This document shows, one piece after another, positions 4,648-54,852 of a stretch of 64,000 bases of DNA (the first letter of the stretch is position 1; each line of letters starts with the position of its first letter). This DNA is from a virus, in IMG/VR virus record IMGVR_UViG_3300032331_002067, positions 36,002-100,001 of that record; one strand, given 5' to 3'. Position numbers and translations under genes: made by a program. The notes below the pieces were generated by a model. That model searched no databases and was not told where the DNA came from. It was given only the letters and a program-made list of their open reading frames with translations.

Positions 4648-6333
4648 ATGTTAAAAGATTATATCGTAATCTCAAATAAAGCTGAAACCGTAAGTCGTAT
4701 CTCTTTAGAAAAGCTAGGTTTTTCTACTAAGAGAAATGACGCTAAGACTATTGGTCAATTTGGCTCTGGAATTAAATATGCACCAATTGCTGCACTAAGG
4801 AATGGACTTGAATGGTTCTTTACCGGAAATGATAACAATGGTCCATTCACTCTTGAATACATTGTTCAAGAAGAAGATGGAGTTGAGTGTATTGCTTATA
4901 AGTATGGAGATCAAATTAAATCATCTTCTTTTACTCTTGAAGCAGGAGTAATGTCTTGGGAAGACCCATTCCAAATTTTACGCGAACCTATTGCTAATGC
5001 AATGGATGGAGCAACAGTAAATGAAGATGGATGGTATAACATTTTTGTTATTACTGTTGATACAGATGACCCAGAATCAATGAAAAAGCTTGAACCTCGT
5101 GAAGGTGTATTCTCTGTTTATATCACAGCATCTCCTAATCTAATGAAGGTTGTTAATAATTATGATGCATACTTCTCTGTAAAGCGTGAAGTATTGTTTG
5201 ATAATCATTTTGGTAAACTTCTCGATAAGTTTGATAACACATCTCGATTTTATACATTAAATGTTCTTGTAAAACATGATGAAACAAGTAATTCCATTTT
5301 CGATTACCAATTCGATAGTCTTGAACTAAATGAAGAGCGAAGTGTTAAATCATTATGGGATCTTGACTACAATGTATCCAAAATGATTTGCAGTGTTACT
5401 AATCCAGATATTGCTGAAGAATATATCTCTGAGTTTGTAGGGGCTAAAGCAGAGGATAGTGGTATTTGGGAACTAAATCGTTTGGCTAGTCAAAACTTCA
5501 AATATCACGGAAGCGATGTTTCTCACGAAGTTTGGCAGAAAACTTGGAATAATCTTTATACAGAAAAAGCTGTGATGCTTAATGGTGATCAGAATTCAGA
5601 TTCTCTTCGTTTGGCTGTTATTAGTCGTGGATATCAACCAATTGTTGTAGCTAATAAAACAGCTTACAATATTTTATCATCAATGGAAATCAAATCTCTT
5701 TTTGACATCTTGGGTGAACAAGTTGATTATGAAATTGATGACGATATTAGTGGATATCCTCGTTTGCTTGAAGCAATTGAAATTGCATCATCTTTTGAGA
5801 CCGGAATCATTCCCCTACAGAATGAAATTGGCGTGTTTGAAAGTAAAAAAGAAGGTGTAATGGGAATGTGCGTGAGTATTGGTGATAACAAAAAGCGTAT
5901 TGTCATTGAGAAATATCACGCCAAGAATGGAACAATTCAGGAACTTGTTGGCACACTGATTCATGAATTTGATCATTACAGCACTAATGTTGGTGATTCA
6001 GCCGATATGATTGGCAGAGAATTTAGGAATATTGCAGACACAAGAATTGGTGGATTGATGGTTGAACATTACAAGCAAAATATCCTCGAAAAGAAGTTTG
6101 GTGGTGCTTATATTGCAATCAGTAAAATGTCTTCAATGTCTAACCTAAACTACAGTTCAGAGTATTCTGAAATTCTTGGTAAAACAATCCTTGGTATTGG
6201 AGGATTGAGTTTCATTATTGAATGTAGCAAATCAGCGATTGAAAAATCAGGAACTTGTTTTGTTGATAATACAGGTAAATATCTGTATGTTCCTATTAAC
6301 GGAGAATTCGAAATCATAAAGGAGATTTTGTAA
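4648..6333 (+). CDS. GHKL-type ATPase domain fused to a HEXXH metallopeptidase-like domain
   Basis: IGQFGSGIKYA and REPIANAMD (GHKL motifs); LIHEFDHY near the C-terminus. Confidence 0.65.
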   Translation: MLKDYIVISNKAETVSRISLEKLGFSTKRNDAKTIGQFGSGIKYAPIAALRNGLEWFFTGNDNNGPFTLEYIVQEEDGVECIAYKYGDQIKSSSFTLEAGVMSWEDPFQILREPIANAMDGATVNEDGWYNIFVITVDTDDPESMKKLEPREGVFSVYITASPNLMKVVNNYDAYFSVKREVLFDNHFGKLLDKFDNTSRFYTLNVLVKHDETSNSIFDYQFDSLELNEERSVKSLWDLDYNVSKMICSVTNPDIAEEYISEFVGAKAEDSGIWELNRLASQNFKYHGSDVSHEVWQKTWNNLYTEKAVMLNGDQNSDSLRLAVISRGYQPIVVANKTAYNILSSMEIKSLFDILGEQVDYEIDDDISGYPRLLEAIEIASSFETGIIPLQNEIGVFESKKEGVMGMCVSIGDNKKRIVIEKYHAKNGTIQELVGTLIHEFDHYSTNVGDSADMIGREFRNIADTRIGGLMVEHYKQNILEKKFGGAYIAISKMSSMSNLNYSSEYSEILGKTILGIGGLSFIIECSKSAIEKSGTCFVDNTGKYLYVPINGEFEIIKEIL

Positions 6334-9398: not shown

Positions 9399-9470
9399 GC
9401 TTCTATAGTTAAAGGGATATAACTACGGACTTCTAATCCGTTATTTTAGGTTCGAATCCTAATGGAAGCA
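9399..9470 (+). tRNA. tRNA-Arg(UCU)
   Basis: GCTTCTA/TGGAAGC acceptor stem; ACGGA-CTTCTAA-TCCGT anticodon arm; GGTTCGAATCC T-arm. Confidence 0.9.
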
Positions 9471-9473
9471 CTA

Positions 9474-9566: not shown

Positions 9567-9632
9567 GAGCGCATACTCAATTTATCCAAAAAGTAAACCT
9601 AAACAAGATGGCGTAAAGCTAAAAGGAAAAAA
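9567..9632 (+). repeat. ~65-bp intergenic element, copy 2
   Basis: matches 1064-1130; begins within the inverted repeat TTGAG-CGCATA-CTCAA. Confidence 0.7.
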
Positions 9633-17106: not shown

Positions 17107-17295
17107 ATGATAAAGAAGAAGATTGATCCAAGTGATCGGCGGGAATATTTCTATGGAGAAAGTGTACATGAATATATCGGGGTTCTTGTAGAGATGATTC
17201 TAAAGATAGAAGAGTCTAAAGAGATAGGGAATCTAGATAAGGATCGTATAAGAGTTCTATTAACTGATTCTATTTCTATTCTGAACGAGTATTAA
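17107..17295 (+). CDS. hypothetical protein
   Basis: last ORF of the + arm. Confidence 0.5.
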   Translation: MIKKKIDPSDRREYFYGESVHEYIGVLVEMILKIEESKEIGNLDKDRIRVLLTDSISILNEY

Positions 17296-17329
17296 CACAC
17301 AGGTATATACACATATCTGTGGATTACAT

Positions 17330-17338
17330 TGTGGATAA
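17330..17338 (-). promoter_or_regulatory. DnaA box (TTATCCACA)
   Basis: TGTGGATAA on +; 1-mismatch boxes at 17305-17313 and 17318-17326. Confidence 0.6.
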
Positions 17339-17433
17339 GCTACCCGTATAGATACCGTATAGTAGCAATCATGTAGTAAGCGCTCAACATGGCGCAAATA
17401 TATACTAATTAGTAGTTAGTAACATAGCAATTA

Positions 17434-17478
17434 AAAGCCTTAGAGGTAAGTTAAATCTTATCTTTAGGGCTTTTTTTT
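17434..17478 (+). terminator. intrinsic terminator ending the left arm
   Basis: AAAGCCTTAGAGGTAAG/CTTATCTTTAGGGCTTT followed by T8. Confidence 0.75.
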
Positions 17479-17562
17479 GTGCCTAAAATCAGCATAAAGT
17501 AAAGAATAATCGATAAAAAACGATCAAAACATAGCAAAAACATACTATTTTGTATCAAAACA

Positions 17563-17578
17563 TCGAACATTTGTTCGT
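17563..17578. promoter_or_regulatory. actinobacterial/Gram-positive LexA (SOS) box
   Basis: TCGAAC-ATTT-GTTCGT versus the consensus TCGAAC-N4-GTTCGA. Confidence 0.65.
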
Positions 17579-17582
17579 ATGT

Positions 17583-17591
17583 TGTGGATAA
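17583..17591 (-). promoter_or_regulatory. DnaA box (TTATCCACA)
   Basis: perfect TGTGGATAA, 4 bp from the LexA box. Confidence 0.6.
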
Positions 17592-18315
17592 CTTCGGATA
17601 TGTACTAAAATTAAAGGTAAAGTTAAAGAAAAACAGCCTACATTAGAGAGCTGAATGCGTATTCGCCGGCTTTGTTCTATCTATAGCTATCTCTATCCCT
17701 ATATATAAGCTAGAAGACTATCTAACCCGGAACTTTGCGGGAAAGCTCATAATTTGAGAATGTATAAGTGCCCCTTACCCTATATATATCCCTAGCTATA
17801 AAGTAAATAAGAATATTTGAAGGTATTTACCCCGATAGTTAATGTATTAGAGAATGAGGTAGAGAATGTGATAGTAGATATCCCAAATGCCGGCGATAAT
17901 AATGTGAAAGTTACGGGCTTGTAATTTGAGTCATATATTCACCTATATATGTACAGATATACCTAGGGGAATAGATAAACCAATAGCCCCGTCTTATTCC
18001 TCAGACCCCATAATTTGAAAGGGATACTGATCCCTTACCCTTATCTTAAATTGAAATAGAAATTTAAACTTAATAAAAGAAAGATTCATCATGATTAGTA
18101 AATTCATTAAATTAATGAGAAAATTAAAGTTAAATTTAATTGGTGTCCAAAACGCTGAAGCGTTTATGGTACCCCAACCATAATTTGAAAGTTAAGGTGG
18201 TCCCTTACCGTATAGGTATCGTTTGGAGAATGTATTAAATTAATAAGAAAGATAAAGGTAAACGAAACTGGTGTTCAAGTGCTTTAGCACGCCCAGAACA
18301 CCAGCGATTTTGGGC

Positions 18316-18342
18316 AAAAAAAAACCACGCCTTTCGGCGTGG
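18316..18342 (-). terminator. cassette A terminator
   Basis: minus strand CCACGCC-GAAA-GGCGTGG-T9. Confidence 0.85.
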
Positions 18343-18378
18343 AAAAAACTTTCGTTTATTTTTTCGGTTTCACTTTCG

Positions 18379-18729
18379 CTAAGCGTTCGCCTTGCGAGAG
18401 ATAACCATTCTGCCATCGTCAAGCCAGTTGATTTGGATTGCAATCCCCAACTTTTCCGAAACACTTTCGGCACGATTTCGGTATTTCATCTTTTCGGCTT
18501 GAATCTTCGTTGAATCTTGGTTGAGATTCACCGTTGCTTCAGACCAAACGAATGCGTCACCGATTTCGTTGGGGTCTAATGACAGAATGTCTGTCGCCAA
18601 TACAGGGTTTTCGTATGGGGGTTTCCCACGCTTGACCAACTTGGATTGGATTTCGGAAAGGTTTACCTTTTGGTTTGCCTTTTTGGGTTTGTCGCCTGCG
18701 TTATCGCTCGGCATGGTTGTTGTAGCCAC
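18379..18729 (-). CDS. small protein, KRG(K/R)PP...KMKYRNR family (cassette A)
   Basis: leaderless GTG 6 nt after TATTAT; close paralog of 19033-19365. Confidence 0.75.
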   Translation of the reverse strand: MATTTMPSDNAGDKPKKANQKVNLSEIQSKLVKRGKPPYENPVLATDILSLDPNEIGDAFVWSEATVNLNQDSTKIQAEKMKYRNRAESVSEKLGIAIQINWLDDGRMVISRKANA

Positions 18730-18735
18730 ATCTAC

Positions 18736-18767
18736 ATAATACGAATGGGCTTGGGTTATGTATTCAA
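18736..18767 (-). promoter_or_regulatory. cassette A promoter
   Basis: TTGAATACA-N17-TATTAT. Confidence 0.75.
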
Positions 18768-18974
18768 TAATCGTAAATAATAGACCCAGAACGGCGGGCG
18801 CACGAAGTTCGCTGAAGCTCTCCGCACGCCCGTCATGATTTGAATGGTAATTTGAATCCTTACGGAGATCCTTACCATGATTTGAAAATGTGAATGAAAT
18901 TTTACTCATAGCTACACCGGTAGAAGCTGGCGTTCAAGTGCTTTAGCACGACCCGAACGCCAGCGATTTTGGGC

Positions 18975-19001
18975 AAAAAAAAACTCGCCCCGAGGGGCGA
19001 G
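18975..19001 (-). terminator. cassette B terminator
   Basis: CTCGCCC/GGGCGAG stem followed by T9. Confidence 0.85.
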
Positions 19002-19032
19002 CCAAAAAAACTTTTTTTGTGTGGGGGGGATG

Positions 19033-19365
19033 TTACTGAGGAGTACCGAGGGAGATAATCATTTTTCCGTCATCCTGCCAGTTGATAGCGATGGTTACGC
19101 CACACTTCTCAGCAACGCTGAGGGCACGATTACGGTACTTCATTTTCTCTGCTTGTACCTTGTCCTGTGGTGCTGTGAGGTTCACAGTCGCTTCCGACCA
19201 GTAGAAGGCATCGCCCTCAACTGTTGGGTCAAGACTGAGAATGTCAGTAGCGAGCACTGGGTTCTCATAGGGGGGCTTGCCTCGCTTCACCAAGTTAGCC
19301 TTGATGCTGTTGAGGTTCACCTTTTTGTTTGGTTCCGCTTTGCGGTCACCTGTGTTATTTGCCAC
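19033..19365 (-). CDS. small protein, KRG(K/R)PP...KMKYRNR family (cassette B)
   Basis: leaderless GTG 6 nt after TATAGT. Confidence 0.8.
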   Translation of the reverse strand: MANNTGDRKAEPNKKVNLNSIKANLVKRGKPPYENPVLATDILSLDPTVEGDAFYWSEATVNLTAPQDKVQAEKMKYRNRALSVAEKCGVTIAINWQDDGKMIISLGTPQ

Positions 19366-19371
19366 GAGATA

Positions 19372-19403
19372 ACTATACCTATGGGGTTCACCTGTGTATC
19401 CAA
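19372..19403 (-). promoter_or_regulatory. cassette B promoter
   Basis: TTGGATACA-N17-TATAGT. Confidence 0.75.
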
Positions 19404-19553
19404 TACCTACTAAATACTCTCATAGATTAGACCCAAACTGGCTGGTGCTTAAAAGAGCTGAAGCTCTTCCGCACACCAGACCATCTTGTGTATAGAGAGA
19501 GCGCATACTCAATCTCTCTGACTGTCCGTCTGGGTCGGCTTGGCGTTAGGCAC

Positions 19554-19584
19554 AAAAAAAGGGAGAGAGCCGAAGCCCTCTCCC
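19554..19584 (-). terminator. cassette C terminator
   Basis: GGGAGAGGGC-TTCG-GCTCTCTCCC-T7. Confidence 0.85.
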
Positions 19585-19607
19585 TTTTCGTCAGCCCGCA
19601 AGTGATT

Positions 19608-19880
19608 CTAGCGGTTTGCTTTGCTTACTACTGGACTTGACTTTGCGCCGACTGTCCATGAGATGGACACGGGCTTACCAAGCCTCATAGAGATGGTATG
19701 TATGCGGTTGCGATACTTCATCTTTTGAGTGTGATTGCTCTGAGTGACACGAATATCACTCAAGACAATCTCATCAGTTGTCTTTTTGAGAAGGCGTAGA
19801 GCCTGCTCAATGTTTGCGTCAGAGAATGGGGGTCGCCCACGCTTGACGATTGTTGCTGTACCTTTAGGCTGAACTTTCAT
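19608..19880 (-). CDS. small basic protein, divergent member of the KRGRPP...KMKYRNR family (cassette C)
   Basis: AGGA RBS; VKRGRPPF, QKMKYRNR and ISW motifs. Confidence 0.75.
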   Translation of the reverse strand: MKVQPKGTATIVKRGRPPFSDANIEQALRLLKKTTDEIVLSDIRVTQSNHTQKMKYRNRIHTISMRLGKPVSISWTVGAKSSPVVSKANR

Positions 19881-19929
19881 GATTCCTACTTTCGTTGGGT
19901 TTAGGTTCACCGTTGGGCTGACATCTATA

Positions 19930-19961
19930 ACTATACCTATGGGTTGAATATATGTATTCAA
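19930..19961 (-). promoter_or_regulatory. cassette C promoter
   Basis: TTGAATACA-N17-TATAGT. Confidence 0.75.
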
Positions 19962-20098
19962 TATGAGAATATATAGACCCTAGATTCGCTGGCGTTTAAG
20001 AAGTCTGAAGCCCTCTCGCACACCAGCTCGCTTAGGTAGGAAGAGAATGTGTACTCAATTCCAATGGATCGCCTGTCCGGGTCGGAGTGGTGTTAGAC

Positions 20099-20130
20099 AA
20101 AAAAAAGAGGGGGTCTTGCGACCCCCCCTC
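20099..20130 (-). terminator. cassette D terminator
   Basis: GGGGGTC-GCAA-GACCCCC followed by T8. Confidence 0.85.
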
Positions 20131-20146
20131 TTTCGGAGTGTGTGAC

Positions 20147-20563
20147 CTAGGCGAAGGCTAGGAACTCAACGATTGCCTGTGAGTAAAGGTGACCCTCCAC
20201 TTGCATATTCTCACCCAACAATGCCTCAACCGCTTTCACGGCTGGTAGCAATGTTTCCTGAATGGTGAACAATGTCTCGTAGTAGGTAGCCTTCGTGACT
20301 GTCTCGCTATCGTCACGGGTCACTGTTCTAATGACTGTCTGAGTAGCGTCTAGGAGTGTCTCACCCGTTGAGCGGGCTTGTTCTAGGAAGAACATATGAG
20401 TATCTCCTGACATATGGTCAGACTGAATCATGACCTTTATAAATGCCTTAGTGAATATCTCCACGAAGGTGTTGAGTGTGCTTGCGAACACATTCAGACT
20501 AAGTATCTGAAGTGGCTCGCAGGGTTCAAGTAGTGGTTCCAATGTTACCTTTCCGCAGTTCAT
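20147..20563 (-). CDS. hypothetical protein (cassette D); start uncertain, alternative AGGAG-led ATG at 20395
   Basis: ORF lies between a promoter and a terminator. Confidence 0.6.
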   Translation of the reverse strand: MNCGKVTLEPLLEPCEPLQILSLNVFASTLNTFVEIFTKAFIKVMIQSDHMSGDTHMFFLEQARSTGETLLDATQTVIRTVTRDDSETVTKATYYETLFTIQETLLPAVKAVEALLGENMQVEGHLYSQAIVEFLAFA

Positions 20564-20586
20564 TTGTTCACTGCTTCCATACACCT

Positions 20587-20618
20587 ATATTACTATCGGG
20601 TTTAGAATATGTATTCAA
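20587..20618 (-). promoter_or_regulatory. cassette D promoter
   Basis: TTGAATACA-N17-TAATAT. Confidence 0.7.
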
Positions 20619-20774
20619 TATCGGGATATACCTAGACCCACATTGGTTGGTGCTAAAGGAAGCTTAAGCCTCCTCGCACACCAAACGAACATCGGTACGG
20701 GAAGACGATCAGTGTAGAGAGAACGCATACTCAACTCTATAGACTGTCCGTACCGAATGGATTGGAGTAGAGAC

Positions 20775-20806
20775 AAAAAAAAGAACCGTACTGGCTGTAC
20801 GGTTCT
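20775..20806 (-). terminator. cassette E terminator
   Basis: GAACCGTAC/GTACGGTTC stem followed by T8. Confidence 0.85.
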
Positions 20807-20819
20807 CTTTCTTGGGGGT

Positions 20820-21032
20820 CTAATCGTTTGGTCGGTATGTCTCGTACCCATAGGGGTCGTAGATAGTGGTCGTGGTCTCGCAAGGGTAGTGAAACTCTTG
20901 GCAGTCGGGGATACCCTTTCCCCCCCTCTCACCGATAATGAAGCAGGCGATAAGTATCGCATACGCAAGGCTCACCCAAAAGATGAACCTCACGAATGAG
21001 CGAATACGGTAGTAGGTAGGTGAGTGCCCCAT
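20820..21032 (-). CDS. small membrane protein (cassette E, gene 2)
   Basis: TAATG coupling; hydrophobic FIFWVSLAYAILIACFII segment. Confidence 0.6.
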   Translation of the reverse strand: MGHSPTYYRIRSFVRFIFWVSLAYAILIACFIIGERGGKGIPDCQEFHYPCETTTTIYDPYGYETYRPND

Positions 21033-21295
21033 TACAAGCACCTCGGGCACTTGCAGGGGGCAGGCTCGCAACACTCAGTAGCGTTGGTCAGTATCTCAAA
21101 CTTACGCAACCCTTTGAGGATTGCGGGGTTGAGGTAAAGGTTCTCTGTCCAACCTTCGTACTGAGCCTCACACATTGCCTTGCAAGCCTCATAGATAGAG
21201 AACTCATTAGGGTGAGTTCGTAGTGTCCAATACATGTCCCAGTTCTTAGGGAACTGGGTTGCCTCTGCGATAGCAGTCAGCGGGTTTATTCCCAT
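21032..21295 (-). CDS. small protein with a Cys-rich C-terminus (cassette E, gene 1)
   Basis: leaderless ATG 6 nt after TATAGT; ends CCEPAPCKCPRCL. Confidence 0.7.
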   Translation of the reverse strand: MGINPLTAIAEATQFPKNWDMYWTLRTHPNEFSIYEACKAMCEAQYEGWTENLYLNPAILKGLRKFEILTNATECCEPAPCKCPRCL

Positions 21296-21301
21296 ACACA
21301 C

Positions 21302-21333
21302 ACTATACCTATGAGGTTAGAATGTGTATACAA
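21302..21333 (-). promoter_or_regulatory. cassette E promoter
   Basis: TTGTATACA-N17-TATAGT. Confidence 0.75.
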
Positions 21334-21498
21334 AATGAGAGAATACCTACCCCCTTACACGCTGGTGTTTAAGAAGGCTTAAGCCTTCCCGCACTCCAGC
21401 GATTCTAGATCTATCACCGTTCCCCTGAGAGGTCGTGTATAGAGAGAGCGCATACTCAACCCTATGGGCTGTCCGCCTCGGTAGGAATGGTGTTAGGC

Positions 21499-21528
21499 AA
21501 AAAAAAGAGCCAGCCCGAAGGCTGGCTC
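21499..21528 (-). terminator. cassette F terminator
   Basis: GAGCCAGCC-TTCG-GGCTGGCTC-T8. Confidence 0.85.
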
Positions 21529-21554
21529 TCTCTCTTGGGGGATTGTTGGGGGTC

Positions 21555-21887
21555 TTAGTAGTTGCGACCATTCGCATCGGTTACCTTGTAGCCCGACTTG
21601 ACGAGCAAGGCAATGGCTAGGTCGGCATCGCTTGATACTCGCTCACGAATAGGTGACTTTACCTCGTAGCCTGCCATGAGTAATTCGTTCATTGCGCTTT
21701 CTACGATAGCCTCACGAGCCTTTATGTGGAGTTTGCTTGCTGTCTTGACCATGTAGGCGAGTTGGTCGTCAAACATTTTGGCGTATGCTACGGAGAACTT
21801 TACGCCCTCGCTTGCGACTTCCATGTTGCGTAGTTGAACGCAAGCCTCCTTGAAGGCTTCTTGTATAAGGTTAGTATCGTGTGACAT
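21555..21887 (-). CDS. hypothetical protein (cassette F)
   Basis: GAAAGGA RBS; internal repeat L.MAGYEV / LVKSGYKV. Confidence 0.75.
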   Translation of the reverse strand: MSHDTNLIQEAFKEACVQLRNMEVASEGVKFSVAYAKMFDDQLAYMVKTASKLHIKAREAIVESAMNELLMAGYEVKSPIRERVSSDADLAIALLVKSGYKVTDANGRNY

Positions 21888-21937
21888 GGATTCCTTTCTC
21901 GCCCGTCAGTTGTTCGGGGCGTTGCTTCCATGTCATA

Positions 21938-21969
21938 ACTATACCTATGGGCTGAAAATGTGTATTCAA
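21938..21969 (-). promoter_or_regulatory. cassette F promoter
   Basis: TTGAATACA-N17-TATAGT. Confidence 0.75.
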
Positions 21970-22208
21970 TCTAGGGAATAAACAAACCCCTACCCTGCGG
22001 GCGTAAAGCGAAGCTGAAGCTTAGCACGCCCGCCTATTGACTCCCCAAACAGAGGAAAACGAAAAACAAAAAAATAACGCAGTAGCATGCTACGGATATA
22101 TACTCAAATTTTCTAAAAAACGGGGTCGGCTGCAAGTGCCGGGTTTTGGTTTAGAAAACGGGGGAGATGGGGGGTTGAGTGCGTATTGCTCCCAGAGCTG
22201 AGCTGCTG

Positions 22209-22321: not shown

Positions 22322-23092
22322 TCAATTTGTATTCACTTCTACATTTATCTCTAGAATCTTATTGGAGGAATGTTGAGCTACATTATCTTGTCCTATGTTA
22401 GTGATCTCGTATCCGAGAGACTCAATGTAGGAGAATAGATCTTGTCTCCGGGGCTGGAACCATTCCTTGTTTGCCCACGCTTCAAAGAGAATAGGTGGGA
22501 ACCCATTTCGCTCAATAGTATTTTTTGCGCCCACGAGAACAGCGAGTTCCAAGCCTTCTACATCGATTTTGATGAGCTTGATATCGTTCATCTCAAGTGA
22601 GTCCAATTTTAAGACAGAAATCAATTCCGTGTTACCACTGGAGGTACACTCATAACCGTTCTCACGCACCTCGTGATCAAGGCTAAAGGCTCCTACATTC
22701 AATTCTGTGGAATAGTCCGGCAACTGAATATAAAACGAATCTGGCTCGTATGACAAACCGAAGTTTTTGGCGAATACATTGTCACACCTGTTGAGTAAGA
22801 TATTTGAACAAAGCTGGTAAAACACGATTCTTTGCGGTTCAAAGGCATGGAACTCAAACTGTGGATACTTCTTTGCTAACGGCACACAAAAGCTTCCTAC
22901 ATTGGCTCCGATGTCCAAGACCAAACCCTGCTCACCAATCCTGAGATAGTGATCCAAGAACATTCCTGAGAATGTGAGAATGTGTGGCTCATGCCCAACT
23001 TTATTCTTTAAGGCATCTGAGATGAGATCATCTTTATCAAACAAGAAAAAGCGACAATCCCCTCCGTCATATATTGAAGATGATGGAATCAT
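22322..23092 (-). CDS. FkbM family SAM-dependent methyltransferase
   Basis: LDIGANVG, AFEP and LIKIDVEGLE motifs. Confidence 0.9.
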   Translation of the reverse strand: MIPSSSIYDGGDCRFFLFDKDDLISDALKNKVGHEPHILTFSGMFLDHYLRIGEQGLVLDIGANVGSFCVPLAKKYPQFEFHAFEPQRIVFYQLCSNILLNRCDNVFAKNFGLSYEPDSFYIQLPDYSTELNVGAFSLDHEVRENGYECTSSGNTELISVLKLDSLEMNDIKLIKIDVEGLELAVLVGAKNTIERNGFPPILFEAWANKEWFQPRRQDLFSYIESLGYEITNIGQDNVAQHSSNKILEINVEVNTN

Positions 23093-23104
23093 ACTTTCCT
23101 TTTG

Positions 23105-23323
23105 CTATTCATTATCTCTATTATACCAATGAGACTCACGATATCTCTGCATGGCGTTGATATTTGAGACTGTTTGTGCAACCTGTCGATGCCGGCGATT
23201 CCGTGACCACAAGCTATTCTGAAACCACGAGGAAACAGCCACATACCCGGCATAACCCACACACAATATTGCAAACCACCTTGCAATCACTACATAGTAT
23301 CTTTCGGGTGCCACCTTGGTCAT
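23105..23323 (-). CDS. small membrane protein
   Basis: coupled ORF with GGAGG RBS and one hydrophobic segment. Confidence 0.55.
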   Translation of the reverse strand: MTKVAPERYYVVIARWFAILCVGYAGYVAVSSWFQNSLWSRNRRHRQVAQTVSNINAMQRYRESHWYNRDNE

Positions 23324-23883
23324 GCCATTCCTCCATCGGGAAGGAAGTTTATGTTTATTGCGAATCTAAAAGGACTCAATACGGGATTGCTTCCCGCATG
23401 AAGGATGTCTCCATCAAACACAACCGCCGTTCCTTTTTTGGGATATACTTCTTTTACAACATTGAGGTCGTCATCATAGAAGTATGTAGGACCGTCTGAG
23501 TCGTTCACATAGTACAGACAGACAAGATGTGGAACCAAACTGCCATCCTCTAGTTTTAAATCAGTGTGTGGTGTCTGAGGACTACACCGGGATGGGTTTG
23601 GCATCGTGACATTTACCTTTGCTCGATACAACCGGATGTCTCCATGCTTATCCTGAATAGCATTGATTATTGGCAATACAACAGGAAGATTCGGAGACTG
23701 TTTTTCTTCCCCCATCATAAAGAGATGATTGGTTAGTTGTTTACCGGAAGAGGATGAGCTGCCAGTTTCTAATGGATCGTTATGAATATTTTGAAAACGG
23801 TAAGGGAATGCGTTGCTAGAGACAAACTCTTCAATTAGGTTCTGATCCTTAACTGGTATGAAGTTTTCAAAAATATCTATCAT
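23320..23883 (-). CDS. 2OG-Fe(II) oxygenase
   Basis: PHTD...LYYVNDSDGPT...FDG..LHA...R..ININF. Confidence 0.85.
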   Translation of the reverse strand: MIDIFENFIPVKDQNLIEEFVSSNAFPYRFQNIHNDPLETGSSSSSGKQLTNHLFMMGEEKQSPNLPVVLPIINAIQDKHGDIRLYRAKVNVTMPNPSRCSPQTPHTDLKLEDGSLVPHLVCLYYVNDSDGPTYFYDDDLNVVKEVYPKKGTAVVFDGDILHAGSNPVLSPFRFAININFLPDGGMA

Positions 23884-24128
23884 TAGTAACGCTGATTCCG
23901 CTCAAGCCTAGATATCTCACATTCTTGATTAATGATGGTGGACATCATTCCTTCAACCTTCTCCTTTAGCTTTAAATTTTCTTCTTCAAACATGGCGCAC
24001 CTATCAATCCACCATTTAATTGTCACTCTGTCCATTTGGGGATCACTTTCCACTCTTGACTCTTCTTTTCTGAAGAAGGTCAAAGTCTTTAATTTTTGTT
24101 TCCCCCATGTACTCCCAAGCAAAGCCAT
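23883..24128 (-). CDS. small coiled-coil protein (start uncertain)
   Basis: coupled to the next ORF. Confidence 0.45.
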   Translation of the reverse strand: MALLGSTWGKQKLKTLTFFRKEESRVESDPQMDRVTIKWWIDRCAMFEEENLKLKEKVEGMMSTIINQECEISRLERNQRY

Positions 24129-24450
24129 CTTTGATCAATTGTTCATTAACAGAAGTCGGTTGGTCATCAATAAAGATCCATCCAAGAATTCTTCCGTACT
24201 TTTCAGTGGAGTCGGGTTTCTCTGTTCTAATGACAATCTTTGTTGCAGCCTTTAGAATTTCATCTAGTCTCTTCTTTACCTCAAGACCAAGAACTTTTTC
24301 GTTCTTATCCGTTGTTCTAGATTCTGGTGTGTCAATACCGGCAAGTCTAACCCGCTGGTAATAAGAAATATTGAACCCAAGATCAATATCTACATCAATG
24401 GTGTCACCATCAACTACTTTGTATAATTTTTTTACGACATATTCGTACAT
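24043..24450 (-). CDS. thermonuclease (SNase-like) nuclease
   Basis: VVDGDTID...RVRLAGIDTPE...KYGRILG...G.A..Y. Confidence 0.9.
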   Translation of the reverse strand: MYEYVVKKLYKVVDGDTIDVDIDLGFNISYYQRVRLAGIDTPESRTTDKNEKVLGLEVKKRLDEILKAATKIVIRTEKPDSTEKYGRILGWIFIDDQPTSVNEQLIKDGFAWEYMGETKIKDFDLLQKRRVKSGK

Positions 24451-24461
24451 ATAACCTCTTT

Positions 24462-25688
24462 CTAATTAATTTTTGGTTTTGGTGTGAACACCACTGGTAG
24501 AACTTCTATATTAGTAAATATAGTTGAATTTGGTGAGTGAATACATTCACCATTTATTTTAATATCTGGAAATCTTTTAATAATAGAAATTATAGCTACT
24601 TCCATTTCAATTTTAGCAAGAATCATTCCAATGCATTGATGAAGTCCTCCACCAAAAGTAAGAATTTGACTTGCGTTATTTTTTCTAAAAGCAATAAGCT
24701 CATTAGGATTAGGAAAAACATCTGGGTCACGATTGCCGGAAGCAACATTAACAGATATAAGAGTTCCTTCTGGAAAGATGACTCCACGATATTCAATATC
24801 TTCCATTGCCATCCTCAATGTTCCACGAAGAGTTGGTGTCAATCTTGCTAGCTCCTCTACTAAGTGAAGAACACGGTTATCATCCTGCAAAAGAAGATCG
24901 ATTTCTTCCTGATGCTCTAGCAAATATGCCATTGATAAACTTAGTTGATTTCTAATTGTATCAATACCTGCTGTAACAATCATTTCAATAACAGCTGCTA
25001 TGTCAAAATCAGAAAGAACCTCTCCATCATCCGCTGGAGAAACAAGCTTGGAAATTACATCATGACCCGGATTCTTTCTTTTTTGTTTAATAATTTGATC
25101 TGTAAAATTATTTATATCTGATTGTAAATTTTTAATTGTGTCAATAGTTACATCAGTATCAATATTGTATAAATCTAGAAGCGTTTTTGACCATTTATCT
25201 AAAATTTCCCAGTTTTCAATGGGAATATCAAATAAATCACAAAGAACAGCTATTGGATAAAAAGCAAATATATCTGCGGTTAAATTTGATGTACCTTTTT
25301 CTTCAATGCTATCAAGCAAGTCTGACATGATCTTTTCCATTTTTGGTTTCATATGTATTGCATTCATATATGTGAAAGCAGGCATAATCATTTTCTTTAA
25401 ACGCCGATGGTCTTCTCCGTTAATTAGTAAAAGCCCTCTTTTTCTTTTTTCACGGTATTCAGGAGTCAACGCTGGATGAAGATCATTGAATACAATTAGT
25501 GGAGATTGCCATCTCTTATCTCTTAAAACAGCAAAACAATCTTGATTACGCAAAACAGCATAACCAATTCTTGTCTTTACTAGCCAAGATTGAGCAGCTA
25601 ATTTTTCAGTTTCTTTAAAACCATCATGCCTTGTCAATACATTATTCATATATGGCAAATCTAATTGCTCTGCTAAATATGTCATCAT
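24462..25688 (-). CDS. cytochrome P450
   Basis: AGIDT (I-helix), EELAR (ExxR), NRDP..F..P and FGGGLHQCIG heme-thiolate signature. Confidence 0.93.
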   Translation of the reverse strand: MMTYLAEQLDLPYMNNVLTRHDGFKETEKLAAQSWLVKTRIGYAVLRNQDCFAVLRDKRWQSPLIVFNDLHPALTPEYREKRKRGLLLINGEDHRRLKKMIMPAFTYMNAIHMKPKMEKIMSDLLDSIEEKGTSNLTADIFAFYPIAVLCDLFDIPIENWEILDKWSKTLLDLYNIDTDVTIDTIKNLQSDINNFTDQIIKQKRKNPGHDVISKLVSPADDGEVLSDFDIAAVIEMIVTAGIDTIRNQLSLSMAYLLEHQEEIDLLLQDDNRVLHLVEELARLTPTLRGTLRMAMEDIEYRGVIFPEGTLISVNVASGNRDPDVFPNPNELIAFRKNNASQILTFGGGLHQCIGMILAKIEMEVAIISIIKRFPDIKINGECIHSPNSTIFTNIEVLPVVFTPKPKIN

Positions 25689-53388: not shown

Positions 53389-54852
53389 ATGAATAAAATA
53401 ACAATCGTTGGGAGTGGTACAGCGGGTCTTGTCTCTGCTCTTATTCTTCATCAAGCTTTTCCACTGAAAAATATATCAATTGTTTCATCAAGTAAAATTG
53501 GAATCATTGGTGTTGGCGAGGGCAGTACAGAGCATTGGAAGATGTTTATGGAAATGTGCAATATACCTCTTGCTGAGCTTTTGATTGAAACAAGGGCTAC
53601 TCATAAAAATGGTATTAGGTTTGAGAATTGGACAAATCATACTCCAGACTATTTCCATTCAGTTGGGTTTGCTGATACCGTTCCTCCTTTTAATGTTTAT
53701 GGTCTTTATAACCACTTAATTAAAGATGGCAAGACCCTTACAGAAAATACAGTAAGTCGTTCTATTATTGAAAATAAAGTTAGAACTATTAATCCACATA
53801 CATCCGTTAATCAATATCATTTTGATACAAATGCTTTAAATAAATATTTAACAAAAATTGCTCAATATCGAGGTATTTCTTTTATTGATGCCGAAGTTAT
53901 TGATGTAAATCTGAATGAAGAAAATGGATTGATTAAATCAATTTTGCTTGATACTAATGAAATTGTTGAATCAGATTTTTGGCTAGATGCTACCGGTATT
54001 AAAAGATTTTTAATATCAAAAGTATCAGAGCCAAAATGGAAATCATTTTCTAAGTATTTACAAATGGACTCAGCAATCCCCTTTCCAACACCTAGTGATC
54101 CATCAGGACAGATTAGACCATACACAAGAGCAAGAGCTATGCCTAACGGATGGGTTTGGGAAATCCCTACACAGGATAGAAGGGGTAATGGCTATGTCTA
54201 TTCCTCATCTCATTGTTCTGATGAACAAGCTATTCGTGAAGTGTCTGAGCTTATGGGGTTTGATGTTGAGCCATTTAAAACTATTAAATTTAATCCCGGA
54301 CATTTAGAGGAGATGTGGGTCAAGAATTGCGTAGCTGTTGGTCTTGCATCTGCTTTTGTTGAACCCATTGAGGCGACATCTATTGGCGGAACCATTCAGC
54401 AAATCCGTTGTTTGGTTGAAAATCTTTCTACATACCAGCCAACGCATAATAAGGTGCAAAATGTTTTTAACAAAAAAATGAATGAGATGATGCAAAACAT
54501 TCTTGCATTCATATCATTGCATTATATCTCTGATAGAGAAGATACTTCCATGTGGAAGGAGCAAAAGGAAATGCCAAAACCTGACTATCTCGTAGACCTA
54601 CTTGATCTGTGGAATGAAAGACCTCCATTTCCTTTTGACATATCTTCAAATAATTATGAGATGTTTCAAGTTCCCCACTTCTACCATGTAGTTCAAGGAC
54701 AAAAATTGTTTAATTCGGATATGGCAAGAGTAATGCTCAATTCTTTTAATTTAGAAGAAAAAGCTAAATACGCTGCTTACGATGCTAAACTTAAACAATC
54801 AGATCACGAGAGGATTGACCATGCTGAGTCGCTCAGAGAAATTCAGATATAA
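53389..54852 (+). CDS. flavin-dependent (tryptophan) halogenase-like protein
   Basis: GSGTAG, IGVGEGS, HK.GI.F.NW, GWVWEIP (WxWxIP), GNGYVYS and FVEPIEATSI motifs. Confidence 0.92.
   Translation: MNKITIVGSGTAGLVSALILHQAFPLKNISIVSSSKIGIIGVGEGSTEHWKMFMEMCNIPLAELLIETRATHKNGIRFENWTNHTPDYFHSVGFADTVPPFNVYGLYNHLIKDGKTLTENTVSRSIIENKVRTINPHTSVNQYHFDTNALNKYLTKIAQYRGISFIDAEVIDVNLNEENGLIKSILLDTNEIVESDFWLDATGIKRFLISKVSEPKWKSFSKYLQMDSAIPFPTPSDPSGQIRPYTRARAMPNGWVWEIPTQDRRGNGYVYSSSHCSDEQAIREVSELMGFDVEPFKTIKFNPGHLEEMWVKNCVAVGLASAFVEPIEATSIGGTIQQIRCLVENLSTYQPTHNKVQNVFNKKMNEMMQNILAFISLHYISDREDTSMWKEQKEMPKPDYLVDLLDLWNERPPFPFDISSNNYEMFQVPHFYHVVQGQKLFNSDMARVMLNSFNLEEKAKYAAYDAKLKQSDHERIDHAESLREIQI

Follow-up and report, generated by a model that had tools for sequence, protein, structure and literature searches.

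Within the window, the 64,000-nt stretch of the viral record that was analyzed, the minus strand from 22035 to 18265 holds an array of six tandem units of 558–715 bp from start to start, close to the roughly 550–750 bp claimed in the initial annotation, and each unit has a promoter-like motif ahead of one or two ORFan genes and closes with a strong intrinsic terminator. The array lies between a tRNA-Asn gene and an AT-rich zone, at the far end of a leftward gene block, and no second copy was found in the record. The phage is a siphovirus-like, uncultured freshwater virus of approximately 100 kb, related to the Stanwilliamsviridae and probably infecting freshwater Actinobacteria. Its portal protein is 42% identical to that of Streptomyces BE-cluster siphoviruses, with neighboring genes in matching order, and the record encodes a tape measure protein of more than 1471 aa. 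By synteny with the Streptomyces BE-cluster phages, the array likely adjoins a genome end.

Six promoter-like motifs, in register on the minus strand, agree with the conserved promoter previously claimed for each unit. They follow the order TTGAATACA, 17 nt, TATAGT or a variant, 5–6 nt, and ATG or GTG, and begin with TTG at 21969, 21333, 20618, 19961, 19403, and 18767, giving successive spacings of 636, 715, 657, 558, and 636 bp. Scanning all 100 kb of the record showed the strong form of the motif to be confined to the array, with one degenerate seventh copy at 18239. The upstream box is set 20 nt away from the −10, a noncanonical geometry, and a sigma-70 consensus scan called only one of the six promoters. 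No sigma-70 region 2 was found.

21929..21969, minus strand: promoter-like motif A, with box TTGAATACA, −10 TATAGT, and ATG 6 nt past the −10
21293..21333, minus strand: promoter-like motif B, with ATG 21295 in frame with the cargo
20578..20618, minus strand: promoter-like motif C, with −10 TAATAT; ATG 20580 opens a 6-codon mini-ORF (MEAVNK)
19921..19961, minus strand: promoter-like motif D; the leader after it opens with the conserved TGTCAG
19363..19403, minus strand: promoter-like motif E, with GTG 19365 in frame (leaderless)
18727..18767, minus strand: promoter-like motif F, with −10 TATTAT and GTG 18729 in frame (leaderless)
18137..18239, minus strand: decayed seventh unit, its promoter-like motif (18239) and its hairpin (18137-18180, E = 0.007) both weak

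The claim of a start codon 5–6 nt after the −10 stood in part: an ATG or GTG is found there, but only units B, E, and F have it in the reading frame of the main ORF. Because ATG 21295 shares the frame of the unit B cargo, that mRNA would be leaderless. In units A, C, and D, the codon after the −10 opens a short or out-of-frame ORF, with the actual gene beginning some 40 nt further downstream, behind a GAAAGG-type ribosome site.

21555..21887, minus strand: cargo A, a 110-aa ORFan with a leader of about 44 nt and an AAGGAA ribosome site
21032..21295, minus strand: cargo B1, 87 aa, with a Cys-rich C-terminus
20820..21035, minus strand: cargo B2, roughly 70 aa, with a single hydrophobic segment and a start that overlaps the stop of B1 (TAATG)
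20147..20563, minus strand: cargo C, an ORFan starting at ATG 20563 or TTG 20542 (the TTG behind a GGAAAGG site)
19608..19880, minus strand: cargo D, a 90-aa paralog of the MKVQPKGT subfamily
19033..19365, minus strand: cargo E, a 110-aa paralog with a KRGKPP motif
18379..18729, minus strand: cargo F, a 116-aa paralog

Three of the cargo proteins are paralogous, as first described, and searches of Pfam, PHROG, and PADLOC returned no match for any cargo. Cargo A has a homologue with 78% nucleotide identity in the first unit of the related array L094, and cargo C matches only 15 protein clusters, each at least 81% identical. Cargo B1 is 27% identical to its positional counterpart, the unit 4 protein of another relative (L013), with flanks 84–90% identical in nucleotides; cargo B2 is missing from L013.

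The array has a GC fraction of 0.42–0.50 versus 0.32–0.35 in the flanks, in keeping with the GC-richer block noted at first, and GC3 is 0.49–0.67 in the cargo versus 0.20–0.46 in other genes. Codon usage of the cargo is host-like and does not require the tRNA-Arg(UCU) of the phage, and avoidance of 4-bp palindromes is stronger in the array than in the remaining genome. If this composition marked foreign origin, the array might be a set of morons acquired recently from the host or a GC-richer phage, its repeats being incidental; the GC and GC3 values far above those of the rest of the genome, the differing codon usage, and a promoter–gene–terminator layout that matches how a moron is defined all point that way. 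We nevertheless judge recent capture quite improbable: phages with portals of only about 80% identity retain the array at this locus together with its scaffold and high GC, which argues for long residence, no relatives of the paralogs were found in 185,579 prokaryote genomes, and homologues of the cargo are limited to this phage lineage.

Each unit ends in a GC-rich hairpin followed by 7–9 T and folding at −14 to −27 kcal/mol. The loops from A to F are UUCG, AGCCA, GCAA, UUCG, CUCG, and GAAA, so that the UUCG or GNRA loops reported for four of the six terminators are confirmed.

21499..21536, minus strand: terminator A, UUCG loop, T8, −26.9 kcal/mol
20775..20813, minus strand: terminator B, −21.1 kcal/mol
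20099..20134, minus strand: terminator C, GCAA loop, −25.3 kcal/mol
19554..19589, minus strand: terminator D, UUCG loop, −25.1 kcal/mol
18975..19003, minus strand: terminator E, GC-rich hairpin and T-run
18316..18342, minus strand: terminator F, GAAA loop

From T-run to start codon, the spacers measure 174–245 bp (about 150–250 bp in the initial annotation) and contain the motifs listed there in the order given. They are homologous, with a mean column identity of 68% in an alignment of the four full spacers plus one from a relative, and the spacer holds two copies of a bipartite ACRCCA...TTGARTAYRC box along with an imperfect hairpin, for which scores under the spacer-hairpin model (R1) are given below. 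A second hairpin type, repeat family D9, occurs 3′ of two terminators.

21441..21498, minus strand: spacer A-B module, tail GCCTAACACCA, then CGGACAG, then core box TTGAGTATGC
20716..20774, minus strand: spacer B-C module, tail, CGGACAG, and core box
20040..20098, minus strand: spacer C-D module, tail and core box
19494..19553, minus strand: spacer D-E module, tail, CGGACAG, and core box
21995..22035, minus strand: spacer hairpin A, GGCGGGCG / CGCCCGC stem variant, 39.9 bits, −22.1 kcal/mol
21359..21402, minus strand: spacer hairpin B, 49.8 bits
20644..20687, minus strand: spacer hairpin C, 46.4 bits
19986..20029, minus strand: spacer hairpin D, 48.9 bits
19439..19482, minus strand: spacer hairpin E, 50.7 bits
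18792..18835, minus strand: spacer hairpin F, GGGCG / CGCCC stem variant, 35.2 bits
18924..18966, minus strand: second hairpin type (D9), directly 3′ of the terminator of a paralog cassette; 92% identical to the copy at 18264-18325
18265..18307, minus strand: second hairpin type (D9), 3′ of terminator F

Matches to the spacer-hairpin model are confined to these arrays. The arms are GCTGGYG and CRCCAGC, with a conserved 2×2 internal loop, and pairing in the lower stem reaches 99.4%, three of the pairs having changed on both sides. None of 500 shuffles reached the observed score, in a sample that amounts to four or five independent arrays, where within-genome copies related by duplication inflate the covariation counts. 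Summed folding energies of the hairpin as RNA are −740 kcal/mol for the sense versus −610 kcal/mol for the antisense strand, and G-U pairs number 59 versus 15. With its compensatory changes and strand bias, the hairpin is a candidate new cis-regulatory or recombination element; in an Rfam search, tRNA alone passed the gathering score, and nothing in 17200-22200 scored better than E = 0.08. Since it lies 3′ of a strong terminator and 5′ of the next promoter, a role as RNA requires read-through; in such sense RNA it may act as an insulator, a back-up terminator, or a processing site, or it may be a protein-binding structure. Its distance to the promoter box is fixed at 25–26 nt, the single exception being longer by about one helical turn, which would fit a role at the DNA level as well as one in RNA.

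Comparison of cassette number and content among relatives, proposed in the initial annotation together with the spacer alignment, uncovered arrays at the same locus with 7 units in L013, 10 in L097, and approximately 9–10 in L098. Across the four arrays compared, the paralog family alone is common to all and most cargo is unique to one genome; shared cassettes keep their order and others are replaced. Unit A of the window and unit 2 of L013 have the same promoter, leader to the ribosome site, and terminator, around unrelated ORFs. Cassette D is absent in L013, where a lone spacer aligns with both window spacers around D and is itself a C-D / D-E / C-D mosaic, and exchange tracts take in leader and terminator. 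Exchange at the scaffold is also indicated by the cargo A homologue in the first unit of L094 and by the divergence of B1 between its well-conserved flanks. In G003, a complete relative, there is no hairpin array, so that the array is dispensable. Gain, loss, and replacement in relatives are thus bounded by the shared scaffold, and the modularity claimed at the outset is borne out.

These patterns also bear on plain tandem duplication of an ancestral paralog cassette, in which the ORFs would have diverged past recognition and the scaffold would be kept as regulatory sequence with no ongoing exchange. The paralogy of three of the six cargos would be expected from such a history, for which the leaders of the non-paralog cassettes, resembling the 5′ coding portion of the paralog genes (GTGAACC...), and the decayed unit relics at the distal array end also speak. 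Against it stand unrelated ORFs, one of them a membrane protein, within near-identical leader and terminator between genome flanks 84–90% identical, a cassette that one genome has and another lacks precisely between two homologous spacers, the mosaic spacer in L013, and the kept order of shared cassettes with others replaced; we therefore find duplication without exchange unlikely.

The window had been described as free of integrases, and this extends to the entire record, resolvases included: in six frames of the 96%-complete 100-kb record we found no tyrosine or serine recombinase (PF00589, PF00239), in searches whose controls did return matches. Genes for UvsX-, RuvC-, and Cas4-like proteins are present. 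An integron-like platform, in which the hairpins would be attC-like, structure-specific sites exchanged site-specifically as single-stranded DNA or cruciforms by a dedicated enzyme, could draw on the RuvC-like and Cas4-like nucleases, the single hairpin at each cassette boundary, the hairpin structure kept while its sequence drifts (with its internal loop and strand bias), and the match of the tail motif GCCTAAC to the RYYYAAC pattern. The missing recombinase counts against it, as do the promoter of each cassette, unlike integron cassettes, and hairpin arms without attC core sequences. The exchange tracts with leader and terminator, and the L013 spacer as a patchwork of approximately 50-bp tracts, fit homologous recombination or gene conversion and not one fixed exchange point. 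Such a platform is accordingly a very doubtful candidate. We give a small chance to another proposal, that the hairpin and repeated boxes form a dedicated cis-acting system, bound by the KRG(K/R)PP proteins or cut by RuvC-/Cas4-type nucleases, that drives cassette exchange or switches the whole array on or off; if true, this would be an integrase-free, integron-like phage cassette platform and not passive homology.

We consider it likely that self-contained ORFan cassettes form a PeSL- or moron-like hyperplastic array here, one shuffled by homologous recombination. Host RNA polymerase would read each cassette from its own array-specific promoter (−10 TATAGT), starting at the ATG/GTG or one base ahead and stopping at the strong intrinsic terminator; paralog cassettes would yield leaderless mRNAs, and the others a leader of about 40 nt with a tiny leaderless ORF and then a ribosome site. 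The repeated spacers of approximately 200 bp, the leaders, and the terminators serve as portable homology, which the UvsX-, RuvC-, and Cas4-like proteins can use to delete, insert, replace, or patch cassettes; the comparison with relatives bears this out. The promoters may fire early, and the cargo may act in host takeover or counter-defence; promoters, timing, and termini are all predictions from sequence. The modular part of the initial interpretation holds, and its comparison to an immediate-early or host-takeover terminal region like those of SPO1 or T5 has only circumstantial support, from host-like codons, leaderless starts, restriction-site avoidance, and synteny near a genome end.

The host-takeover or pre-early modules of SPO1 and T5 lie at genome ends and group small genes under a number of strong promoters and terminators. 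The array resembles them as a cluster of small genes with promoters and terminators, restriction-site avoidance, and a position near a genome end suggested by synteny only, although the cargo proteins are unrelated and those modules are not known to have a conserved structured spacer. Integron attC arrays are similar in their tandem small cassettes and imperfect inverted repeats, with structure kept above sequence; the present array differs in having no IntI-type recombinase and no RYYYAAC...GTTRRRY cores, a promoter and terminator in every cassette, and exchange tracts that resemble homologous recombination. Morons, reportedly described by Juhala and colleagues in 2000, are autonomous promoter–gene–terminator insertions of deviant base composition in lambdoid and other phages. 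The units appear moron-like in their own promoters and terminators, deviant base composition, and presence or absence in collinear relatives. The classical kind is inserted singly and has no shared flanks, whereas six to ten tandem units here have one shared scaffold, and prophage expression is inapplicable with no integrase.

Among described systems, the array comes closest to one that the initial annotation does not name, the PeSL (promoter-early stem-loop) cassettes, regulatory elements of the hyperplastic regions in T4-type phages (Arbiol et al. 2010, PMC2839356; Comeau et al. 2014, PMC4122927). Both place ORFans between repeated composite intergenic elements, in which a terminator stem-loop is followed by a promoter, here a putative one, and which extend to the ribosome site and start codon. 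Insertion, deletion, or replacement with breakpoints in these elements sets related phages apart in either system, and phage homologous recombination is the presumed engine, with no integrase. By its tape measure and BE-cluster-like portal, the present phage is not a T4-type myovirus but a siphovirus-like actinophage related to the Stanwilliamsviridae. Its spacers are also longer (approximately 200 versus 100 bp) and carry an extra covarying, strand-biased hairpin apart from the terminator plus the two bipartite boxes, the promoter geometry is noncanonical with leaderless ATG/GTG starts, and the array is a GC-rich island. What is new, as judged from sequence comparison, is the apparent cargo swap, presence or absence between homologous spacers, and a mosaic spacer in related phage arrays. 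PeSL-type shuffling, known in T4-type phages of Gram-negative hosts, would thereby extend to an abundant uncultured freshwater lineage of probable Actinobacteria phages, with leaderless starts and an extra structured spacer element added. Such arrays are likely stores of host-takeover or counter-defence genes and mark where new phage genes are tried, and their conserved scaffold offers primers and search models for the variable gene pool in metagenomes.

Regular-expression and mismatch-tolerant scans of the whole 100-kb genome located six promoter-like motifs in register on the minus strand of window 22035-18265, each laid out as TTGAATACA, 17 nt, TATAGT, 5-6 nt and then ATG or GTG, with the -10 varying to TAATAT in unit C and TATTAT in unit F. 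The strong form of the motif is confined to this array, and one degenerate copy lies at 18239.

21969, 21333, 20618, 19961, 19403 and 18767, minus strand: TTG starts of the six promoter-like motifs

Every unit (A-F, each a promoter-like motif, cargo and a terminator) is closed by a GC-rich hairpin followed by 7-9 T (-14 to -27 kcal/mol), with loops UUCG, AGCCA, GCAA, UUCG, CUCG and GAAA in unit order, and the T-run is separated from the start codon by 174-245 bp. Alignment of the four full window spacers and one from a relative gave a mean column identity of 68%, with conserved blocks in the order T-run, GYCTAACACCA, CGGACAG, TTGAGTAYRC-TCTC, hairpin, GGGTCTA and promoter. The initial annotation had described six minus-strand units, recurring spacer motifs in fixed order and a block richer in GC than its surroundings, and all of this was borne out: six motifs and six terminators were recovered, the aligned blocks are its motifs read on the opposite strand, and GC is 0.42-0.50 in the array versus 0.32-0.35 in the flanks. 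Cargo GC3 is likewise 0.49-0.67, compared with 0.20-0.46 in ten other genes. A further promoter was sought between the core box, the conserved block upstream of the hairpin, and the hairpin itself, and that stretch holds no conserved -10. An exact IMG/VR search with the 16-nt core motif returned nine unrelated chance matches only.

The initial annotation had also placed a start codon 5-6 nt after each -10, and this position holds in all six units, whereas the codon is in frame with the main ORF in B, E and F only. The ORF that it opens has 43 codons and is out of frame in unit A (ATG/GTG), and has 6 codons in unit C (ATG) and 5 in unit D (ATG/GTG); the genes of these three units begin approximately 40 nt further downstream, preceded by a GAAAGG-type ribosome site, and the downstream start of unit D is confirmed because its homologues begin MKVQPKGT. 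Separately, we observed that leaders other than those of the paralogs (the related cargo proteins of units D, E and F) open with conserved 5-7-codon leaderless mini-ORFs (MEVNPK, MVVKPK, MRVKPK, MEAVNK), whose nucleotide sequence is similar to that encoding the paralog N-termini. About 20 nt past the start codon, the predicted leaderless mRNAs of the paralogs share a small stem, CCGC-NNNN-GCGG, which is conserved and has the compensatory variants CUGC...GCAG and CCGU...GCGG. L013 and L097 in the following lines are array loci of related phages.

L013 3441-3461, 4413-4433 and 4832-4852; window 20560-20580: leaderless mini-ORFs in leaders
Window ~19330-19350; L013 ~6015-6035; L097 5335-5352, 6940-6957, 7549-7566 and 8162-8179: CCGC-NNNN-GCGG stem

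The portal has 373 relatives in IMG/VR. Arrays that occupy the equivalent position, on the downstream side of tRNA-Asn and the nuclease, 2OG-oxygenase and methyltransferase genes, were recovered from three related genomes: L013, with flanks 84-90% identical to the window at the nucleotide level, L097 (from G002), and L098 (the G001/G004/G005/L114 type). The window array has 6 units and one relic, and the others have 7, 10 and approximately 9-10, respectively. Clustering of sense-strand ORFs from the four arrays revealed that the paralog family is the only cargo present in all of them; two further cargos are common to the window and L013, and the remainder are unique to one genome. Cassettes B, C, E and F stand in the same order in the window and L013, while cassette A, ORF B2 (the second ORF of unit B) and cassette D are missing from L013, which has three cassettes of its own. 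B1 is only 27% identical to its positional counterpart in L013. Window unit A and L013 unit 2 share a near-identical promoter, leader and ribosome site, as well as terminator, around unrelated ORFs. The closest relative by portal (L094, 97%), whose contig breaks within the first unit, holds a homologue of cargo A at 78% nucleotide identity. At the place of cassette D, the C and E homologues of L013 are separated by a single spacer, which can be aligned with each of the two window spacers on either side of D; informative sites resolve it as a C-D / D-E / C-D patchwork. Cassette content is thus not invariant among relatives, and its changes are bounded by the scaffold, in support of the proposal that cassettes would be shuffled as modules. 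A complete relative with a portal approximately 81% identical (G003) is without the hairpin array, and the array is therefore accessory.

Contigs of the closest relatives (G006, which carries L022; L094; L096) tend to stop at or just before the array, consistent with assemblies breaking where the sequence is repeated and variable. In the G001-type relative (L098 3642-7154), the hairpins that close the cassettes are very GC-rich and lack a T-run, an extra small hairpin (GTTAGG-NNNN-CCTAAC) lies between spacer hairpin and promoter, and leaders begin with a 5′-terminal stem, GTCGG...CCGAC.

The spacer hairpin was aligned in 25 copies from four genomes (GCTGGYGTGC...GCTTCAGC...TTAAACRCCAGC), and a covariance model built from these copies matched only inside these arrays. 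There was no match in the rest of the 100-kb genome, in the portal flanks of about 50 relatives, in five further relatives searched whole, or at the genome ends of Blueeyedbeauty, a Streptomyces BE-cluster phage. Applied to the 40 IMG/VR and 80 metagenome loci listed by pattern searches, the model gave only three weak single matches (28-30 bits) at unrelated loci; among the IMG/VR loci listed, only contigs of the same few phages belong to these arrays, and the metagenome loci listed are chance palindromes, none confirmed by the model. No Rfam family matches the hairpins. In all 34 copies folded, a lower stem, a 2x2 internal loop (GC opposite AA) and a sequence-variable upper stem were found. 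Counts that overstate the evidence, because copies within one genome are not independent, put the 7-bp lower stem at 99.4% paired, with both partners changed in three pairs (U-A to C-G to A-U; C-G to U-A; U-A to G-C), a covariation score reached by none of 500 shuffles, and the gene-carrying strand more stable as RNA in 30 of 34 copies; the direction of the effect is consistent across the four genomes. Sliding the partner columns drops pairing to 34-43%, and summed fold energies are -740 kcal/mol for the sense and -610 kcal/mol for the antisense strand, with 59 versus 15 G-U pairs. Together these observations argue that the sense strand would form a base-paired structure, either as RNA or as single-stranded DNA.

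We also considered that the hairpin sequence might instead be a dimer operator on double-stranded DNA, a less likely reading, which its fixed distance from the promoter would fit; the symmetric compensatory changes argue for base pairing. The hairpin 3′ end lies 25-26 nt from the promoter box in all units but E, where the distance is 36 nt, about one helical turn more, and such fixed spacing would suit a DNA-level role. For the base-paired structure, an RNA role is counted against by its placement: a strong terminator precedes it and the next promoter comes after it, so that it would be present in read-through RNA only. In all four genomes, the paralog-cassette terminators are followed by a second type of hairpin. 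An attenuator-like pairing of the tail motif with the hairpin 5′ arm was rejected, as it includes a variable base without covariation across five spacers.

The box TTGARTAYRC occurs nine times in the window against 1.4 expected, and a box of this type is found twice per spacer, as core box and as promoter box; ACRCCA lies approximately 30 nt upstream of the core box, and the ACRCCAG hairpin arm lies the same distance upstream of the promoter box. Three further copies of the bipartite ACGCC...TTGAGTATGC/TTTAGTATGC box, in the same orientation, were identified just upstream of rightward early genes. When these are read on the plus strand, a TACTAAAAT-type -10 is followed by a conserved leader and ribosome site.

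Window 9571-9580, window ~1077 and genome 30407, minus strand: extra bipartite boxes

The promoter box is uniform within a genome and differs between genomes (TTGAATACA in the window and L013, TTTAGTGCAT in L097, TTGAGTGCG in L098), while the -10 is unchanged across all four. This pattern points either to homogenization by recombination within the array, or to co-evolution with what would be a phage-specific factor.

Searches of Pfam, PHROGs and PADLOC found no match for the seven window cargo proteins or three from L013. The paralog family comprises 79 protein clusters, all unnamed and all metagenomic, in two subfamilies, with an almost invariant, AT-hook-like K-R-G-(K/R)-P motif. It is absent from 185,579 prokaryote genomes, and neither the broad alignment nor the MKVQPKGT subfamily search retrieved anything further from IMG/VR. 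An AlphaFold model of a paralog (pLDDT 86) had no convincing fold neighbors (best Foldseek E-value 0.14; best VIA Z-score 5.5, in the noise range), and a protein atlas yielded nothing. Cargo C has 15 close homologues only.

The source record comprises 100,001 bases (CheckV completeness 96%). PHROG and Pfam scans identified genes for replication (DnaE-type polymerase, DnaB-like helicase, primase), recombination (UvsX-like recombinase, Cas4-like exonuclease, RuvC-like resolvase), terminase, ribonucleotide reductase, portal, protease and major capsid protein; the tape measure exceeds 1471 aa. Six-frame searches of the record found no tyrosine or serine recombinase and no sigma-70 region 2. As candidate readers of the unusual promoter, a phage RNA polymerase and a phage sigma factor were both looked for and neither was found, the RNA polymerase control being uninformative. 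The leftward block at 22322-25688 also holds an FkbM-type methyltransferase, a 2OG-Fe(II) oxygenase, a staphylococcal-nuclease homologue and a 408-aa ORF, and a tryptophan-halogenase homologue lies in the tail region (53389-54852).

Among cultured phages, Streptomyces BE-cluster siphoviruses (Stanwilliamsviridae) are the nearest, with portals 42% identical. An actinobacterial host is consistent with a -10 followed directly by ATG/GTG, and would also fit the U-less GC-rich terminators of one related array. The window and Blueeyedbeauty have a common local gene order, with leftward small genes and tRNAs, then rightward glycosyltransferase, ribonucleotide reductase and portal. The leftward block of Blueeyedbeauty adjoins the physical left end, and the right arm of that genome is taken up by many small rightward genes in succession. 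Terminal repeats of approximately 11 kb are present in BE1 phages (PMC5764925). Our array is the last element of the leftward block, facing the gene-free, AT-rich zone (17.3-18.26 kb) where the blocks converge, and because of this synteny we infer that it would lie beside the genome end, which the zone at 17296-18259 may itself hold. The record contains no end repeats and, by covariance-model search, no second array copy. Decayed relics of array units are present in the zone, along with 3-4 copies of a repeat (GGTAAGGG, 10-14 nt, TTCAAATTATGG), each of which opens a 5-10-codon ORF; this repeat is also inserted in the E-F spacer (18833-18906).

18239: weak promoter motif, relic in the convergence zone
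18137-18180: weak hairpin, relic in the convergence zone
Convergence zone: AT-rich copies of the box region

Codon usage sets the cassette genes apart, with AGA making up 6% of arginine codons versus 41% in 13 other phage genes, and AAC making up 77% of cargo asparagine codons versus 33% in the rest of the phage. With so little AGA in the cassette genes (18379-21887), the phage-encoded tRNA-Arg(UCU) would not be needed.

Window 9399-9471: phage-encoded tRNA-Arg(UCU)

TCGA is absent from the array (17 expected) and occurs 102 times elsewhere against 186 expected; cassette coding DNA contains neither AGCT nor GATC, and the whole genome avoids ACGT (1 versus 139 expected), GGCC (0 versus 79) and CGCG (5 versus 51). 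Such codon usage and palindrome avoidance would suit genes expressed from newly injected DNA with host resources. The early or host-takeover role suggested in the initial annotation is plausible.

In comparison with known systems, the array fails to resemble an integron in both integrase and attC features, and it can be described as a tandem series of units that each qualify as a moron. Among the systems described, it comes closest to the promoter-early stem-loop (PeSL) cassettes of T4-type phages. PeSLs are composite terminator-promoter repeats, approximately 100 bp long and extending as far as the ribosome site and start codon, that border ORFans in hyperplastic regions; through homologous recombination they give rise to indels and replacements, with mini-circles excised in the process (PMC2839356, PMC4122927). 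The array shares four defining features of PeSLs, and its promoter-like motifs are candidate counterparts of the PeSL promoter. It differs in host and phage lineage, in its predicted leaderless starts, in a longer spacer that also has paired boxes and a covarying hairpin distinct from the terminator, and in being a GC-rich island. Judged by these features, the array would work like PeSLs while standing outside the PeSL set, because its context is not T4-type.
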